Virus record (IMG/VR): IMGVR_UViG_2681813262_000008
DNA length: 5,881 nt
Direction: 5' to 3' (one strand)
From: a virus
Lineage: Duplodnaviria > Heunggongvirae > Uroviricota > Caudoviricetes
The position numbers and the translations under genes are program-made. Of this stretch, positions 1-5,881 are shown piece by piece. A model generated the notes under the pieces. It saw nothing but the letters and a program-made list of their open reading frames with translations, was not told the origin of the DNA and did no database searches. Within the stretch, counting starts at the first letter, position 1. Each line of letters opens with the position of its first letter.

Positions 1-1012
1 ACGTCGCCAGCTGTCCGCACAGGAGAAATCCCTGCTGGCGCATAAAGATGAGACGCTGGAGTACAAACGCCAGCTGGCTGCACTTGGCGATAAGGTCACG
101 TATCAGGAGCGCCTGAACGCGCTGGCGCAGCAGGCGGATAAATTCGCACAGCAGCAACGGGCAAAACGGGCCGCTATTGATGCGAAAAGCCGGGGGCTGA
201 CTGACCGGCAGGCAGAACGGGAAGCCACGGAACAGCGCCTGAAGGAACAGTATGGCGATAATCCTCTGGCGCTGAATAACGTCATGTCAGAGCAGAAAAA
301 GACCTGGGCGGCTGAAGACCTGCTTCGCGGGAGCTGGATGGCAGGCCTCAGGTCCGGCTGGAGCGAGTGGAAAGAGAGTGCCACGGACAGTATGTCGCAG
401 GTAAAAAGTGCAGCCACGCAGACCTTTGATGGTATTGCGCAGAATATGGCGGCGATGCTGACCGGCAGTGAGCAGAACTGGCGCAGCTTCACCCGTTCCG
501 TGCTGTCCATGATGACAGAAATTCTGCTTAAGCAGGCAATGGTGGGGATTGTCGGGAGTATTGGCAGCGCCATTGGCGGGGCTGTTGGTGGCGGCGCATC
601 AGCGTCAGGCGGTACAGCCATTCAGGCCGCTGCGGCGAAATTCCATTTTGCAACCGGAGGATTTACGGGAACCGGCGGCAAATATGAGCCAGCGGGGATT
701 GTTCACCGTGGTGAATTTGTCTTCACGAAGGAGGCAACCAGCCGGATTGGCGTGGGAAATCTCTACCGGCTGATGCGCGGCTATGCCACCGGCGGTTATG
801 TCGGTGGCACCGGAAGTCCGGCGCAAATGCGGCGTTCAGAGGGTATCAGGTTTGAGCAGAACAACAACGTGGTGATTCAGAACGACGGTACGAATGGTCT
901 GCCAGGTCCACAGATGATGAAGGCGGTGTATGACATGGCCCGCAAGGGTGCCCGTGATGAAATCCAGGCACAGATGCGCGATGGTGGTCTGTTCTCCGGA
1001 GGTGGACGATGA
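1..1012 (+). CDS. H: Tail tape measure protein, C-terminal 337 codons (5' end lies upstream of the window)
   Basis: Reading frame is open from position 2 to the TGA at 1010..1012; the track ORF 284..1012 is only its last internal Met onward. Translation (RRQLSAQEKSLLAHKDETLEY...GGLFSGGGR) matches my memory of the lambda gpH C-terminus. Gly/Ala-rich hydrophobic stretch (MVGIVGSIGSAIGGAVGGGASASGG). Stop overlaps the M start (ATGA). Confidence 0.9.
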   Translation, partial: RRQLSAQEKSLLAHKDETLEYKRQLAALGDKVTYQERLNALAQQADKFAQQQRAKRAAIDAKSRGLTDRQAEREATEQRLKEQYGDNPLALNNVMSEQKKTWAAEDLLRGSWMAGLRSGWSEWKESATDSMSQVKSAATQTFDGIAQNMAAMLTGSEQNWRSFTRSVLSMMTEILLKQAMVGIVGSIGSAIGGAVGGGASASGGTAIQAAAAKFHFATGGFTGTGGKYEPAGIVHRGEFVFTKEATSRIGVGNLYRLMRGYATGGYVGGTGSPAQMRRSEGIRFEQNNNVVIQNDGTNGLPGPQMMKAVYDMARKGARDEIQAQMRDGGLFSGGGR

Positions 1013-1338
1013 AAACCTTCCGCTGGAAAGTGAAACCCGGGATGGATGTGACATCGGCTCCTTCCGTCAGGGAGGTGCGCTTTGGTGATGGCTATTCCCA
1101 GCGTGCGCCTGCCGGGCTGAACGCTGACCTGAAAACGTACAGCGTGACGCTGTCTGTCTCCCGTGAGGAGGCCACGGCGCTGGAGTCGTTTCTGGAAGAG
1201 CACGGGGGCTGGAAAGCCTTTCTGTGGACGCCGCCTTATGAGTGGCGGCAGATAAAGGTGACCTGCGCAAAATGGTCGTCGCGGGTCAGTATGTTGCGTG
1301 TTGAGTTCAGCGCAGAGTTTAAACAGGTGGTGAACTGA
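1009..1338 (+). CDS. M: Minor tail protein M (109 aa)
   Basis: Track ORF 1009..1338; protein MKTFRWKVKPGMDV...RVEFSAEFKQVVN matches lambda gpM from memory. Start overlaps the H stop (ATGA); stop overlaps the L start (TGATG). Confidence 0.93.
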   Translation: MKTFRWKVKPGMDVTSAPSVREVRFGDGYSQRAPAGLNADLKTYSVTLSVSREEATALESFLEEHGGWKAFLWTPPYEWRQIKVTCAKWSSRVSMLRVEFSAEFKQVVN

Positions 1339-2036
1339 TGCAGGATATCCGGCAGGAAACACTGAATGAATGCACCCGTGCGGAGCAGTCGGCCAGCGTG
1401 GTGCTCTGGGAAATCGATCTGACAGAGGTCGGTGGAGAACGTTATTTTTTCTGTAATGAGCAGAACGAAAAAGGTGAGCCGGTCACCTGGCAGGGGAGGC
1501 AGTATCAGGCGTATCCCATTCAGGGGAGCGGTTTTGAACTGAATGGCAAAGGCACCAGTACGCGGCCCACGCTGGCAGTCTCTAACCTGTACGGCATGGT
1601 CACCGGTATGGTGGAAGATATGCAGAGTCTGGTCGGCGGAACGGTGGTCCGGCGTAAGGTTTACGCCCGTTTTCTGGATGCGGTGAACTTCGTCAACGGA
1701 AACAGCGACGCCGATCCGGAACAGGAGGTGATCAGCCGCTGGCGCATCGAGCAGTGCAGCGAACTGAGCGCGGTGAGTGCCTCCTTTGTACTGTCCACGC
1801 CGACGGAAACGGATGGCGCTGTTTTTCCGGGGCGTATCATGCTGGCCAACACCTGCACCTGGACCTATCGCGGCGATGAGTGCGGTTATCACGGTCCGGC
1901 GGTCGCGGATGAATATGACCAGCCAACGTCCGATATCACGAAGGATAAATGCAGCAAATGCCTGAGCGGTTGTAAGTTCCGCAATAACGTCGGCAACTTT
2001 GGCGGCTTCCTTTCCATTAACAAACTTTCGCAGTAA
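1338..2036 (+). CDS. L: Minor tail protein L (232 aa), copy 1, sequence type 1
   Basis: Track ORF 1338..2036; protein MQDIRQETLNECTRAEQSASVVLWEIDL...FGGFLSINKLSQ matches lambda gpL from memory. C-terminal cysteine cluster (C-x10-C ... C-x2-C-x3-C) is the known Fe-S binding region of gpL. Confidence 0.92.
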   Translation: MQDIRQETLNECTRAEQSASVVLWEIDLTEVGGERYFFCNEQNEKGEPVTWQGRQYQAYPIQGSGFELNGKGTSTRPTLAVSNLYGMVTGMVEDMQSLVGGTVVRRKVYARFLDAVNFVNGNSDADPEQEVISRWRIEQCSELSAVSASFVLSTPTETDGAVFPGRIMLANTCTWTYRGDECGYHGPAVADEYDQPTSDITKDKCSKCLSGCKFRNNVGNFGGFLSINKLSQ

Positions 2037-2040
2037 TCCC

Positions 2041-2193
2041 ATGACAGAGACAGAATCAGCGATTCTGGCGCACGCCCGGCGATGTGCGCCAGCGGAGTCG
2101 TGCGGCTTCGTGGTGAGAGCGCCGGAGGGGGAAAGATATTTTCCCGGCGTGAATATTTCCGGTGAGCCGGAGGATTATTTCCGGATGGCTCCG
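2041..2193 (+). pseudogene. K: 5' fragment of tail assembly protein K gene (51 codons, type 1), cut off by the N run
   Basis: ATG at 2041, 4 nt after the L stop; MTETESAILAHARRCAPAESCGFVVRAPEGERYFPGVNISGEPEDYFRMAP equals the N-terminus of the complete K ORF at 3979 apart from four residues; sequence ends at the N run 2194..2201. Confidence 0.75.
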
Positions 2194-2201
2194 NNNNNNN
2201 N
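2194..2201. other. Run of 8 N (gap or masked bases) at junction between repeat segments A and B
   Basis: Literal n characters in the sequence; the flanking sequence jumps from K codon 51 back to the last 16 nt of M. Confidence 0.99.
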
Positions 2202-2217
2202 AACAGGTGGTGAACTG

Positions 2218-2916
2218 ATGCAGGATATCCGGCAGGAAACACTGAATGAATGCACCCGTGCGGAGCAGTCGGCCAGCGTGGTGCTCTGGGAAATCGATCT
2301 GACAGAGGTCGGTGGAGAACGTTATTTTTTCTGTAATGAGCAGAACGAAAAAGGTGAGCCGGTCACCTGGCAGGGGCGACAGTATCAGCCGTATCCCATT
2401 CAGGGGAGTGGTTTTGAACTGAATGGCAAAGGCACCAGTACGCGCCCCACGCTGATGGTTTCTAACCTGTACGGTATGGTCACCGGGATGGCGGAAGATC
2501 TACAGAGTCTGGTCGGCGGAACGGTGGTCCGGCGTAAGGTTTACGCCCGTTTTCTGGATGCGGTGAACTTCGTCAACGGAAACAGTGACGCCGATCCGGA
2601 GCAGGAGGTGATCAGCCGCTGGCGCATTGAGCAGTGCAGCGAACTGAGCGCGGTGAGTGCCTCTTTTGTACTGTCCACGCCGACGGAAACAGATGGCGCT
2701 GTTTTTCCGGGACGTATCATGCTGGCCAACACCTGCACCTGGACCTATCGCGGCGATGAGTGCGGTTATCACGGTCCGGCGGTCGCGGATGAATATGACC
2801 AGCCAACGTCCGACATCACGAAGGATAAATGCAGCAAATGCCTGAGTGGCTGTAAGTTTCGCAATAACGTCGGCAACTTTGGCGGCTTCCTTTCCATTAA
2901 CAAACTTTCGCAGTAA
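2218..2916 (+). CDS. L: Minor tail protein L (232 aa), copy 2, sequence type 2
   Basis: Full-length L ORF preceded by the last 16 nt of M (aacaggtggtgaactg, as at 1322..1337). Differs from copy 1 by roughly 25 substitutions by manual alignment, giving four amino-acid changes (A58P, A80M, V92A, M95L). The track ORF 1999..2916 is this ORF fused in frame across the N run to upstream sequence. Confidence 0.8.
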   Translation: MQDIRQETLNECTRAEQSASVVLWEIDLTEVGGERYFFCNEQNEKGEPVTWQGRQYQPYPIQGSGFELNGKGTSTRPTLMVSNLYGMVTGMAEDLQSLVGGTVVRRKVYARFLDAVNFVNGNSDADPEQEVISRWRIEQCSELSAVSASFVLSTPTETDGAVFPGRIMLANTCTWTYRGDECGYHGPAVADEYDQPTSDITKDKCSKCLSGCKFRNNVGNFGGFLSINKLSQ

Positions 2917-2920
2917 TCCC

Positions 2921-3041
2921 ATGACAGAGACAGAATCAGCGATTCTGGCGCACGCCCGGCGATGTGCTCCAGCGGAGTCGTGCGGCTTCGTGGTAAGAAC
3001 GCCGGAGGGGGAAAGATATTTCCCCTGCGTGAATATCTCCG
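2921..3041 (+). pseudogene. K: 5' fragment of K gene (40 codons, type 2), cut off by single N at 3042
   Basis: MTETESAILAHARRCAPAESCGFVVRTPEGERYFPCVNIS; nucleotide-identical to 3979..4099 of the complete K gene by manual comparison. Confidence 0.75.
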
Positions 3042-3042
3042 N

Positions 3043-3549
3043 GGTTTTGAACTGAATGGCAAAGGCACCAGTACGCGGCCCACGCTGGCAGTCTCTAACC
3101 TGTACGGCATGGTCACCGGTATGGTGGAAGATATGCAGAGTCTGGTCGGCGGAACGGTGGTCCGGCGTAAGGTTTACGCCCGTTTTCTGGATGCGGTGAA
3201 CTTCGTCAACGGAAACAGAGACGCCGATCCGGAGCAGGAGGTGATCAGCCGCTGGCGCATCGAGCAGTGCAGCGAACTGAGCGCGGTGAGTGCCTCCTTT
3301 GTACTGTCCACGCCGACGGAAACGGATGGCGCTGTTTTTCCGGGGCGTATCATGCTGGCCAACACCTGCACCTGGACCTATCGCGGCGATGAGTGCGGTT
3401 ATCACGGTCCGGCGGTCGCGGATGAATATGACCAGCCAACGTCCGATATCACGAAGGATAAATGCAGCAAATGCCTGAGCGGTTGTAAGTTCCGCAATAA
3501 CGTCGGCAACTTTGGCGGCTTCCTTTCCATTAACAAACTTTCGCAGTAA
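3043..3549 (+). pseudogene. L: 3' fragment of L (codons 65-232, type 1 with 2 substitutions relative to copy 1)
   Basis: Begins directly after the N at 3042 at the sequence corresponding to 1530 of copy 1 (GFELNGKGTSTRPTLAVSNLYGMVTGMVEDMQSL...) and runs to TAA 3547..3549. Differs from copy 1 at 3214 (S to R) and a silent change near 3231. Confidence 0.75.
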
Positions 3550-3554
3550 ATCCC

Positions 3555-3748
3555 ATGACAGAGACAGAATCAGCGATTCTGGCGCACGCCCGGCGATGTG
3601 CGCCAGCGGAGTCGTGCGGCTTCGTGGTGAGAGCGCCGGAGGGGGAAAGATATTTTCCCGGCGTGAATATTTCCGGTGAGCCGGAGGATTATTTCCGGAT
3701 GGCTCCGGAGGACTGGCTGCAGGCAGAGATGCAGGGTGAGATTGTGGC
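3555..3748 (+). pseudogene. K: 5' fragment of K gene (64 codons, type 1), cut off by single N at 3749
   Basis: ATG at 3555; MTETES...RMAPEDWLQAEMQGEIV. The L-K spacer here has one extra A (taaatccc versus taatccc in the other copies). Confidence 0.75.
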
Positions 3749-3749
3749 N

Positions 3750-3974
3750 GATGGCGCTGTTTTTCCGGGACGTATCATGCTGGCCAACACCTGCACCTGG
3801 ACCTATCGCGGCGATGAGTGCGGTTATCACGGTCCGGCGGTCGCGGATGAATATGACCAGCCAACGTCCGACATCACGAAGGATAAATGCAGCAAATGCC
3901 TGAGTGGCTGTAAGTTTCGCAATAACGTCGGCAACTTTGGCGGCTTCCTTTCCATTAACAAACTTTCGCAGTAA
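3750..3974 (+). pseudogene. L: 3' fragment of L (codons 159-232, type 2)
   Basis: Begins after the N at 3749 at the sequence corresponding to 1812 of copy 1 (DGAVFPGRIMLANTCTWTYRGDECGYHGPAV...), ends at TAA 3972..3974. Carries the type-2 variants (ccgggacgt, tccgacatc, ctgagtggctgtaagtttcgc) and looks identical to 2696..2916. Confidence 0.75.
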
Positions 3975-3978
3975 TCCC

Positions 3979-4722
3979 ATGACAGAGACAGAATCAGCGA
4001 TTCTGGCGCACGCCCGGCGATGTGCTCCAGCGGAGTCGTGCGGCTTCGTGGTAAGAACGCCGGAGGGGGAAAGATATTTCCCCTGCGTGAATATCTCCGG
4101 TGAGCCGGAGGCGTATTTCCGTATGTCGCCGGAAGACTGGCTGCAGGCAGAGATGCAGGGTGAGATTGTGGCACTGGTCCACAGCCACCCCGGTGGTCTG
4201 CCCTGGCTGAGTGAGGCCGACCGGCGGCTGCAGGTGCAGAGTGATTTGCCGTGGTGGCTGGTCTGCCGGGGGGCGATTCACAAGTTCCGCTGTGTGCCAC
4301 ATCTTACCGGGCGGCGCTTTGAGCACGGGGTGACGGACTGTTACACGCTGTTCCGGGATGCTTACCATCTGGCGGGGATTGAGATGCCGGATTTTCATCG
4401 TGAGGATGACTGGTGGCGTCACGGTCAGAATCTCTATCTGGATAATCTGGAGGCCACAGGGCTGTATCAGGTGCCGTTGTCAGCGGCGCAGCCGGGCGAT
4501 GTGCTGCTGTGCTGTTTTGGTTCATCGGTGCCGAATCATGCCGCCATTTACTGTGGTGACGGCGAGCTGCTGCACCATATTCCTGAACAACTGAGCAAAC
4601 GAGAGAGGTATACCGACAAATGGCAGCGACGCACACACTCCCTCTGGCGTCACCGGGCATGGCACGCATCTGCCTTTACGGGGATTTGCAACGATTTGGC
4701 CGCCGCATCGACCTTCGTGTGA
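3979..4722 (+). CDS. K: Tail assembly protein K with JAB/MPN (JAMM) metalloprotease motif and NlpC/P60 peptidase domain; long form 247 aa (canonical lambda start would be the internal ATG at 4123, 199 aa)
   Basis: In-frame ORF from ATG 3979 to TGA 4720..4722. JAMM-type motif H-S-H-P-x7-S-x2-D encoded at 4180..4221 (LVHSHPGGLPWLSEAD). NlpC/P60-like Cys in DCYTL (Cys codon 4339..4341) and downstream His residues (PNHAAIY, LLHH). GGAGG at 4107..4111 precedes the internal ATG 4123; no clear SD precedes 3979. Confidence 0.85.
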   Translation: MTETESAILAHARRCAPAESCGFVVRTPEGERYFPCVNISGEPEAYFRMSPEDWLQAEMQGEIVALVHSHPGGLPWLSEADRRLQVQSDLPWWLVCRGAIHKFRCVPHLTGRRFEHGVTDCYTLFRDAYHLAGIEMPDFHREDDWWRHGQNLYLDNLEATGLYQVPLSAAQPGDVLLCCFGSSVPNHAAIYCGDGELLHHIPEQLSKRERYTDKWQRRTHSLWRHRAWHASAFTGICNDLAAASTFV

Positions 4723-5291
4723 AAACGGGTGCCGAAGCCATCCGGGCGATGGCCACACAGCTCCCTGCGTTTCGTCAGAAGCTGAGCGACGGCTGGTATC
4801 AGGTGCGTATTGCCGGGCAGGATGTTAGCACGTCCGGATTAACGGCACAGTTACATGAGGCTCTGCCTGACGGCGCTGTGATTCATATTGTTCCCAGAGT
4901 CGCCGGGGCCAAGTCAGGTGGTGTATTCCAGATTGTCCTGGGAGCAGCCGCCATTGCCGGATCATTCTTTACCGCCGGAGCCACCCTTGCAGCATGGGGG
5001 GCTGCCATTGGTGCCGGTGGTATGACCGGCATTCTGTTTTCTCTCGGTGCCAGTATGGTGCTCGGCGGTGTGGCTCAGATGCTGGCACCGAAAGCCAGAA
5101 CTCCCCGCACACAGACAACGGATAACGGTAAGCAGAACACCTATTTCTCCTCACTGGATAACATGGTTGCCCAGGGCAATGTTATGCCTGTTCTGTATGG
5201 TGAAATGCGCGTGGGGTCACGTGTGGTATCTCAGGAGATCAGCACGGCAGACGAAGGGGACGGTGGTCAGGTTGTGGTGATTGGTCGCTGA
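4620..5291 (+). CDS. I: Tail assembly protein I (223 aa)
   Basis: Track ORF 4620..5291; MAATHTLPLASPGMARICLYGDLQRF...DGGQVVVIGR matches lambda gpI from memory. Purine-rich GAGAGAGG at 4601..4608 upstream. Overlaps the 3' end of K by 103 nt in another frame. Confidence 0.92.
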   Translation: MAATHTLPLASPGMARICLYGDLQRFGRRIDLRVKTGAEAIRAMATQLPAFRQKLSDGWYQVRIAGQDVSTSGLTAQLHEALPDGAVIHIVPRVAGAKSGGVFQIVLGAAAIAGSFFTAGATLAAWGAAIGAGGMTGILFSLGASMVLGGVAQMLAPKARTPRTQTTDNGKQNTYFSSLDNMVAQGNVMPVLYGEMRVGSRVVSQEISTADEGDGGQVVVIGR

Positions 5292-5351
5292 TGCAAAATG
5301 TTTTATGTGAAATCGCCTCCGGGCGGTTTTATCGTTTATGGAGCATGACGA

Positions 5352-5881
5352 ATGGGTAAAGGCAGCAGTAAGGGGCATACCCCGCGCGAAGCGAAGGACA
5401 ACCTGAAGTCCACGCAGCTGCTGAGTGTGATCGATGCCATCAGCGAAGGGCCGGTTGAAGGTCCGGTGGATGGATTAAAAAGCGTGCTGCTGAACAGTAC
5501 GCCGGTGCTGGACAGTGAGGGGAATACCAACATCTCCGGCGTCACGGTGGTGTTCCGGGCAGGTGAGCAGGAGCAGTCACCGCCGGAGGGATTTGAATCC
5601 TCCGGCTCCGAGACGGTGCTGGGTACGGAAGTGAAATATGACACGCCGATCACCCGGACCATCACGTCGGCAAACATTGACCGACTGCGTTTTACCTTCG
5701 GTGTACAGGCACTGGTGGAAACCACCTCAAAGGGAGACAGGAATCCGTCTGAAGTTCGCCTGCTGGTTCAGATACAGCGTAACGGTGGCTGGGTGACGGA
5801 AAAAGACATCACCATTAAGGGCAAAACCACCTCGCAGTATCTGGCCTCGGTGGTGGTGGATAACCTGCCGCCGCGCCCGTT
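5352..5881 (+). CDS. J: Tail tip attachment / central tail fibre protein J, N-terminal 176 codons (continues past window end)
   Basis: ATG at 5352 preceded by GGAG at 5340..5343; frame open to the window end, which is why the track does not list it. Translation MGKGSSKGHTPREAKDNLKSTQLLSVIDAISEGPVEGPVDGLKSVLLNSTPVLD... matches the lambda gpJ N-terminus from memory. Confidence 0.92.
   Translation, partial: MGKGSSKGHTPREAKDNLKSTQLLSVIDAISEGPVEGPVDGLKSVLLNSTPVLDSEGNTNISGVTVVFRAGEQEQSPPEGFESSGSETVLGTEVKYDTPITRTITSANIDRLRFTFGVQALVETTSKGDRNPSEVRLLVQIQRNGGWVTEKDITIKGKTTSQYLASVVVDNLPPRP

Follow-up and report, generated by a model that had tools for sequence, protein, structure and literature searches.

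Reiterated, N-punctuated L and K tail genes in a lambdoid virus record are very probably a scaffolding artifact of two E. coli prophages

The tail-tip module of phage lambda and phage 21 has the gene order H-M-L-K-I-J. False duplications in assemblies typically show gaps between the copies on one scaffold, along with copy-specific k-mers, and in the class termed 'heterotype' (Ko et al. 2022, Genome Biol 23:205, PMC9516828) two diverged versions of a region stand side by side, with gaps between them, copy-specific variants, and spurious extra genes. The similarity of lambdoid prophages to one another leads to assembly difficulties in short-read E. coli drafts, mostly in the form of contig breaks (PMC4587872). 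In a de Bruijn graph, single-nucleotide polymorphisms (SNPs) create forks, and a negative gap indicates contigs that overlap (PMC3158087); SOAPdenovo2 often inserts gaps between contigs that overlap (PMC5368935).

The window, which is the whole 5881-nt stretch of IMG/VR virus record IMGVR_UViG_2681813262_000008 analyzed here, contains a module of this kind in which L and the 5' end of K are reiterated. This reiteration is very probably a false duplication generated by an assembler and a scaffolder, in which case the tandem DNA does not exist and there is no biological feature to explain. The physical absence of a tandem array is something we infer from sequence rather than observe. The window is divided by N runs into four pieces, A to D, with the following features.

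1–2193: piece A, bounded by the N run at 2194–2201
2202–3041: piece B, between the 8-N run and the N at 3042
3043–3748: piece C, between the single Ns at 3042 and 3749
3750–5881: piece D, after the N at 3749
2194–2201, no strand: 8-N gap placeholder, junction 1
3042–3042, no strand: single-N placeholder, junction 2
3749–3749, no strand: single-N placeholder, junction 3
1–1012, + strand: 3' part of H, tape-measure gene, of the type-1 prophage (piece A, left unique flank; Pfam Tape_meas_lam_C)
1009–1338, + strand: M, minor tail protein, type 1 (PF05939, E = 5e-40; 'phage tail protein' in the annotation of prophage L001)
1338–2036, + strand: full copy of L, type-1 allele, piece A (PF05100, E = 8e-101)
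2041–2193, + strand: 5' end of K, codons 1–51 (153 nt), type 1, terminus of piece A; stops at CTCCG/G
2202–2218, + strand: 3'-terminal 17 nt of M, type 2, where piece B starts, one base past SNP 1321 (A/G)
2218–2916, + strand: full copy of L, type-2 allele, piece B (PF05100, E = 1e-100)
2921–3041, + strand: 5' end of K, 40 codons plus 1 nt, type 2, terminus of piece B; stops at CTCCG/G
3043–3549, + strand: 3' fragment of L, codons 65–232, type 1, piece C; starts one base past SNP 1529 (C/T)
3555–3748, + strand: 5' end of K, 64 codons plus 2 nt, type 1, terminus of piece C, one base short of SNP 2235 (G/A)
3750–3974, + strand: 3' fragment of L, codons 159–232, type 2, piece D; starts one base past SNP 1811 (G/A)
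3979–4722, + strand: K, the sole full-length copy, type 2 (Prok-JAB and NlpC/P60)
4719–5291, + strand: I, tail assembly protein, type 2 (PF06805)
5352–5881, + strand: 5' part of J, tip attachment protein, type 2 (right unique flank; FNIII-A_GpJ)

By pairwise alignment, all four pieces fall on a single H-M-L-K-I-J locus, on which A ends at 2193, B covers 1322–2161, C covers 1530–2234, and D starts at 1812. The pieces are mutually overlapping or nested and are sorted by their start coordinate, and the junctions join three different pairs of positions (2193/1322, 2161/1530, and 2234/1812) with no shared unit boundary. On these coordinates, A to D are overlapping stretches of one locus and not tandem units. 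Collapsing them reduces the window from 5881 nt to a single copy of ~3943 nt, a surplus of 1938 nt. A genuine tandem duplication is recognized by head-to-tail units with a common boundary and by continuous sequence over every junction; the window has no such units, and all three of its junctions are N runs (8, 1, and 1 N). The Ns occur at three of three junctions and nowhere else, with no other ambiguity codes in the window, which is the pattern of N gaps between copies on the same scaffold described for false duplications (PMC9516828).

These measurements agree closely with the initial annotation. It had placed the repeated span at 1322–4170, within 2 nt of the 1322–4172 that we measured, and its inventory of two full copies and two 3' fragments of L, four 5' ends of K, and N at every junction was reproduced exactly. 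Its breakpoints likewise held at codon level: K codon 51 to the M tail (A runs out after codon 51 of K, and B opens 17 nt ahead of the M stop codon), K codon 40 to L codon 65 (B includes one base of K codon 41, and C begins at the first base of codon 65), and K codon 64 to L codon 159 (C includes two bases of K codon 65, and D begins at the first base of codon 159). One expectation was off: a PCR product from primers at 1250 and 4700, put at ~2.0 kb for a single-copy locus, computes to 1512 bp (~1.5 kb), whereas the written scaffold would give 3450 bp.

The lambda-like M-L-K-I-J order is fully represented, with PF05939, PF05100, Prok-JAB plus NlpC/P60, PF06805, and GpJ domains occurring in that sequence. 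The open frame of I reaches upstream to an ATG at 4620, and a 190-amino acid gene is called at the equivalent position in prophage L085. A terminator-like hairpin noticed by eye between I and J (5300–5335) was not recovered by a consensus scan. Two further open reading frames are spurious. A K'-L fusion of 305 amino acids (1999–2916) spans the 8 Ns, and a K'-L' fusion of 139 amino acids (3555–3974) crosses junction 3, joining K codons 1–64, an X, and L codons 159–232. The reading frame is kept at junctions 1 and 3 (K' to L over the 8 Ns and K' to L' at 3749) and is lost at junction 2. Fusion proteins as a designed product were rejected on account of this frame loss and the lack of a consistent coding logic.

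As the initial annotation had claimed, A and C belong to one sequence type and B and D to another. B and D have no mismatches over 350 nt, while the 664-nt alignment of A with C shows 2 substitutions (1706/3219 and 1721/3234) and, at 3549, a 1-nt indel (AA vs AAA). Neighboring pieces are less alike, differing at 30 of 840 sites between A and B (gapless by pairwise alignment), at 25 of 632 between B and C, and at 17 of 423, plus 1 indel, between C and D. Typing at 200 SNPs that distinguish type 1 from type 2 gave the order 1, 2, 1, 2. A is type 1 throughout save for one third-state site, C is type 1 save for its last site, and B and D are type 2 throughout; copy-specific variants, as in heterotype duplications (PMC9516828), are therefore present. 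The indel state of the L-K spacer in the window is swapped relative to the natural references. Together with the non-identity of A and C, this swap goes beyond a simple two-copy model, which must be supplemented by a third copy or by local errors, and it suggests one of the two, the errors being ones of local phasing.

Both types correspond to natural prophages. The left flank (1–1321) has no mismatches in 1321 nt with a prophage of avian pathogenic E. coli (APEC) O78:H4 strain E12049 (L001), which defines type 1, and is 94.5% identical to type 2. The E12049 type carries a 112-amino acid open reading frame between I and J. The right flank (4173–5881) has no mismatches in 1709 nt with a prophage found in CP104423 (L085) and in many other genomes, which defines type 2, and is 85.6–95% identical to type 1. 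Merged, B and D match the CP104423 prophage with no mismatches and 1 gap as a contiguous, single-copy stretch, and A and C both map to the E12049 prophage. Positions 1706 and 1721 are the sole differences between the L of piece A and L001, and the L of piece B has no mismatches, the spacer indel aside, with L016, L015, L008, L006, and L085–L092. By these matches, the two unique flanks come from different natural prophages. Both underlying tail modules are ordinary and are already known at 100% identity.

In other genomes the locus occurs as a single copy. When the 5881-nt window was used as a query, it mapped as 4 pieces onto ~3943 nt in 60 of 60 complete records whose span was inspected (the top 20 phage and top 40 E. 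coli records, of roughly 3600 with full coverage), and none of these 60 contained a 5.9-kb version. The exact L protein of A or K protein of D was found in a single M-L-K-I-J arrangement at 16 of 16 places listed; the exact K protein of D, which is present in 5044 collection blocks, lay in a single-copy M-L-K-I-J arrangement at 8 of 8 places listed. The locus is also a single copy in the annotation of L001. With any base permitted at the N, scans of the viral, metagenome, and genome collections yielded no instance of junction 3, and a scan of the viral contigs yielded none of junction 2. Exact sequence patterns specific to A, to B, to type 1, and to the B/D spacer state of the window (the last sought in the viral, genome, and metagenome collections) likewise failed to retrieve the source record. 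The arrangement of the window was thus not seen in independent gap-free sequences among the collections and records scanned.

The initial annotation had regarded the junctions as falling at arbitrary points, which is not so. Four of the six piece boundaries lie exactly one base from an inter-allele SNP: the starts of B, C, and D are one base after SNPs 1321, 1529, and 1811, respectively, and the end of C is one base before SNP 2235. Such adjacency is improbable by chance (binomial p = 3.3e-5; 4 of 200,000 random draws were equally good). C and D begin on codon boundaries because they start just after wobble-position SNPs. Contig ends beside inter-copy differences, as expected of forks in an assembly graph, are found at these four boundaries and not at the other two. 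No SNP adjoined the end of A (2193) or the end of B (3041) among 76 loci sampled there, sites 2162 and 2194 were invariant in nearly all of 38 loci compared, and no next-base branching followed the terminal 15–31-mer of either end among loci sharing that k-mer. A third allele as the explanation of these two ends was rejected for want of support; divergent co-resident prophages fall outside the sample. Microhomology noticed by eye at the junctions (cggt at B/C and tggc at C/D) proved a misfit once the N was counted.

The most probable route to the window would start with two or more lambdoid prophages in the sequenced E. coli, ~96% identical to each other in their L-K regions. Differences between the copies would fork the assembly graph, and contigs would end and begin at these forks. 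Four contigs would result over the same M-L-K interval: A reaching K codon 51, B running from the M tail to K codon 40, C from L codon 65 to K codon 64, and D from L codon 159 onward. Read-pair or reference-based ordering would then have placed them on one scaffold, ranked by start position, with N placeholders (8, 1, and 1) written between unmerged neighbors. Neighbors could not be merged by overlap because they carry different alleles, and the alleles alternate because pieces of the same allele would have merged. The product would have the left half of prophage 1 at one end and the right half of prophage 2 at the other, separated by 1938 redundant nt. The makers were probably a graph-based assembler and a scaffolder, to which we attach no program name. 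A single n for an unresolved overlap is written by both ABySS and SSPACE. Two points lie outside this account, namely the ends of A and B with no adjoining SNP and the 8-N run, for which it offers no specific explanation. The proposal in the initial annotation that contig ends of two near-identical lambdoid prophages had been stitched together is nonetheless in agreement with the flanks, the merging of B with D, the single-copy records, the junction searches, and the SNP-adjacent boundaries.

Single-N joins of overlapping tail-module pieces also occur in at least 10 other IMG/VR contigs, all draft-derived (L003, L005, L007, L009, L013, L014, L035, L037, L047, and L073). Some breakpoints are identical to those in the window, with a piece of L014 starting at the start of D and a piece of L047 at the start of C. 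Both allele types occur on one scaffold in L047 and in L004 plus L073. Piece 1 of L047 passes from type-1 H-M into type-2 K-I without an N and has five allele switches within ~800 nt.

Lambdoid phages are mosaic. The window might accordingly represent a single natural recombinant prophage, having type-1 H-M-L and type-2 K-I-J, with only B and C being stray contigs that were wrongly inserted. The N-free passage between types in piece 1 of L047 fits this reading, although its five switches resemble phase switching by an assembler rather than one crossover. In the window itself, type 1 continues to the end of A and type 2 is already present at the start of D, such that the crossover point is nowhere in the sequence. 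We consider a recombinant unlikely, and the reiteration would be an artifact even so.

The same artifact could also have drawn its alleles from two strains, through a mixed culture, contamination, or a metagenome bin, instead of from one chromosome. The content of the window cannot separate two genomes from two loci in one. Co-resident copies are nevertheless usual: the tail module occurs at a median of 3 places, and up to 14, per complete E. coli genome, and APEC E12049 alone has it at 6 places. The sibling assemblies L047 and L004 plus L073 hold both alleles in one scaffold, and flanks this divergent (~5% and up to 14%) are more readily explained by different phages than by the same prophage in two strains. 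A two-strain source is, on this evidence, very unlikely.

A real alternating-allele array in the tail operon, formed by three illegitimate recombinations between co-resident prophages that made its K'-M'L, K'-L', and K'-L' junctions, and with Ns that are merely poor base calls, is what the deposited scaffold literally reads, and one of its junctions is in frame (3555–3974), but we regard it as extremely improbable, as it requires three different non-homologous junctions that are each N-marked, pieces nested on one locus without a common unit boundary, and junctions at inter-allele SNPs that recombination does not predict, none of its junctions was found in the collections scanned and the expanded locus in 0 of 60 complete records, and K would be complete only once, with truncated K and L fragments sitting in an essential tail-tip module.

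As a scaffolding artifact, the window resembles the heterotype false duplications in having two diverged versions side by side with gaps between and copy-specific variants, and also in its spurious extra genes, here the 305- and 139-amino acid open reading frames. It differs in involving paralogous prophage copies from a haploid bacterium instead of diploid haplotypes, and in having four alternating pieces instead of one pair (PMC9516828). It shares cause, organism, and phage group with the difficulties reported for lambdoid prophages in short-read E. coli drafts, where contig breaks predominate, whereas the pieces here have additionally been chained into one scaffold (PMC4587872). Relative to the tail-tip module of phage lambda and phage 21, there is no biological difference. 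Once de-duplicated, either allele is a typical module of this kind, its Pfam families and gene order being those expected (97.0% identity to phage 21 over the collapsed 3943 nt), and the extra copies do not belong to it.

The reiteration itself has no biological significance, and its practical use is cautionary. Two distinct prophages are fused in the scaffold, which inflates the counts of L and K genes and creates spurious fusion open reading frames. The recurrence of single-N chaining in at least 10 other IMG/VR contigs means that suspicion is due for such records in this gene region, and prophage boundaries, gene-copy counts, and apparent mosaic recombinants taken from them are doubtful.

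The window is filled by a lambdoid tail module on the + strand, as judged from ORFs and Pfam matches, and its nonredundant part is 97.0% identical to phage 21. Three N runs are its only non-ACGT characters, and these divide it into four pieces, A to D. There are two complete copies of L and two 3' fragments, and the 5' end of K occurs four times, as stretches of 51, 40, and 64 codons and as one full copy.

Features of the window
1-5881, + strand, tail genes in the order H 3' end (tape-measure), M, L, K, I, J 5' end
1-2193, piece A
2194-2201, junction 1, 8 N
2202-3041, piece B
3042, junction 2, 1 N
3043-3748, piece C
3749, junction 3, 1 N
3750-5881, piece D
1338-2036, complete L, in piece A
2218-2916, complete L, in piece B
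3043-3549, 3' fragment of L from codon 65, in piece C
3750-3974, 3' fragment of L from codon 159, in piece D
3979-4722, full copy of K
2034-2040, 2914-2920, 3547-3554, and 3972-3978, L-K spacers of pieces A, B, C, and D, respectively

Pairwise alignment confirmed the initial annotation's description of the repeat in full, including its copies and fragments, the pairing of alleles, and an N at each junction. Between pieces A and B there are 30 differences in 840 positions and no gaps, and between C and D 17 in 423 positions plus a 1-nt indel; A and C are separated by two substitutions and this indel across 664 nt, and the 350-nt overlap of B and D is identical. Identities this high (96-100%) across hundreds of bases are well out of the reach of chance. 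On a single locus numbered as in piece A, the pieces occupy positions up to 2193 (A), 1322-2161 (B), 1530-2234 (C), and 1812 onward (D), and the order in which they are written is that of their start coordinates. They are stretches of one M-L-K interval that nest and overlap with one another, not tandem units. Without the redundancy, the window amounts to 3943 nt.

The two ends of the window match different prophages. Piece A has 99.9% identity to one prophage (type 1) in the APEC O78:H4 strain E12049, whose complete genome has a single-copy H-M-L-K-I followed by a 112-aa ORF and J. The left unique flank (1-1321) matches this prophage at 1321 of 1321 positions and type 2 at only 94.5%. Conversely, the right unique flank (4173-5881) matches the CP104423 prophage (type 2) at 1709 of 1709 positions and type 1 at only 85.6-95%. 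Pieces B and D have no mismatches to the N-free, single-copy L-K-I-J of several IMG/VR contigs (L016, L015, L008, and L006), nor to that of complete chromosomes (e.g., CP104423.1 and CP179990.1). At 200 distinguishing sites, A and C are of type 1 and B and D of type 2, with only two exceptions. The divergent flanks and alternating alleles mark the window as a chimera in which one known prophage supplies the left part and another the right, with redundant pieces of both between. This supports, and makes more precise, the earlier proposal that contig ends from two near-identical lambdoid prophages were stitched together.

Between I and J (9324-9801 in L001, the APEC E12049 prophage), the type-1 prophage carries its 112-aa hypothetical ORF, and the type-2 prophage in the window lacks it, having a spacer of just 60 nt (5292-5351). 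Within this spacer lies a small GC-rich hairpin followed by a T-rich stretch, cgcctccgggcggttttatcgttt (5310-5335), at which a consensus scan found no terminator; a terminator is among the features of the phage 21 record under its match to the window. The I frame stays open upstream as far as an ATG at 4620, an overlap of ~100 nt with the 3' end of K (4620-4722), and I is annotated with inconsistent starts in identical and related loci (186 to 215 aa).

We consider the reiteration very probably a scaffolding artefact, without biological novelty. Same-allele neighbours would have merged through their near-identical overlaps, leaving only unlike neighbours separated by Ns, which would account for the alternation of alleles. 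Copies kept apart by gaps within one scaffold, each with variants of its own, are the sequence-level marks of false duplication (PMC9516828), and the window shows them. A natural recombinant prophage into which stray contigs were inserted is improbable, and in this case too the reiteration would be false. A little less probable is a mixture of two strains in place of two prophages in one genome, from which an identical artefact is expected. In E. coli genomes, the median number of places with the tail module is three (maximum 14), so that the raw material for such scaffolding errors is normal, and difficulty in assembling similar lambdoid prophages has been documented (PMC4587872).

The best 20 phage genomes and the best 40 complete E. 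coli genomes listed all map the window as four pieces onto 3943 nt, and among the matches listed, the exact window L (A copy) or K protein lies in a single M-L-K-I-J in 16 of 16 places. With the N free to match any base, junction 3 was absent from 2.9 million viral contigs and from the metagenome and species-representative genome collections, and junction 2 did not occur in the viral contigs. A real tandem array is hardly credible, as it requires three separate nonhomologous joins, each at an N and mostly at an inter-allele SNP, and leaves truncated L and K copies inside an essential operon. For a PCR from M to I (primers at 1250 and 4700), the product of a single-copy locus is 1.5 kb by our computation, not the ~2.0 kb of the initial annotation, versus 3.45 kb for the window as written.

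Most piece boundaries adjoin differences between the two types. B, C, and D start one base after differences at 1321 (A/G), 1529 (C/T), and 1811 (G/A), respectively, and C ends one base before another at 2235 (G/A). All three start sites are polymorphic among the natural alleles sampled, and C and D begin on codon boundaries because the SNPs just before them are third-position changes. At the observed density of differing sites (39 per 1000 nt), the binomial probability of at least four of six boundaries being SNP-adjacent is 3.3e-5, and this was seen in 4 of 200,000 random placements. SNP-adjacent boundaries are the signature of contigs ending at assembly-graph forks. Single-nucleotide differences between two copies fork a de Bruijn graph and end contigs, and an overlap of contigs shows up in a scaffold as a negative gap (PMC3158087); at least one widely used assembler separates overlapping contigs by gaps (PMC5368935).

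Piece A (end at 2193) and piece B (end at 3041) stop where no differing site is adjacent in the loci sampled. Both ends (2183-2193 and 3031-3041) fall at CTCCG|G, a pentamer that is part of CTCCGG/CCGGAG inverted repeats; the end of A lies within an 8-bp palindrome, CTCCGGAG, and that of B within a CTCCGG-TGAG-CCGGAG hairpin. These ends may reflect a local drop in coverage or quality at an inverted repeat, or chance. Nor does the artefact model account specifically for the 8 N at junction 1.

Small inconsistencies occur between alleles as well. At 1706 and 1721, piece A has C and A, against A and G in piece C (3219 and 3234) and in the 99.9%-identical APEC prophage; the difference at 1706 turns Arg into Ser in codon 123 of L. 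The two bases in A form the haplotype found in a third family of L alleles (loci L018-L039), roughly 88% identical, which may indicate a third co-resident prophage or local phase switching. The L-K spacer homopolymer is TAATCCC in type 1 and TAAATCCC in type 2 in every natural locus examined, and is swapped in the window, B and D having TAATCCC and C having TAAATCCC. The exact B/D spacer state was found in none of three collections (viral, genome, and metagenome). Taken with the ends of A and B and the 8-N run, these inconsistencies suggest either a third co-resident copy or local errors of phasing and consensus; each of these fits an assembly origin, and the main conclusion needs neither.

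Single-N joins of overlapping pieces occur in the same tail module in at least 10 other draft-derived IMG/VR contigs (L003, L005, L007, L009, L013, L014, L035, L037, L047, and L073). The pieces chained in these contigs stem from different prophages, and breakpoints recur across contigs at 6524, 7530, 7812, and 7873 (L001 coordinates). One piece of L014 starts at the D coordinate of the window, and one of L047 starts at the C coordinate and continues for 3.3 kb at 99.8% identity to the APEC prophage. L073 and a further contig, L004, are parts of one scaffold in which the tail modules of three or four prophages are chained by single Ns. The N-free stretch 1-3112 of L047 has five type-1/type-2 switches within ~800 nt of L-K, which probably reflect phase switching by the assembler, with a natural gene-conversion mosaic as a lesser possibility.

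Two spurious ORFs run across Ns in the window. One (1999-2916, 305 aa) consists of K' (51 codons), XXX, read-through of the M tail, and full L, and the other (3555-3974, 139 aa) of K' (64 codons), X, and L codons 159-232. Such junction-spanning ORFs would enter gene calls as extra or fused genes. The sole use of this case is as a caution on gene counts, prophage boundaries, and recombinants inferred from N-containing draft scaffolds in this region.
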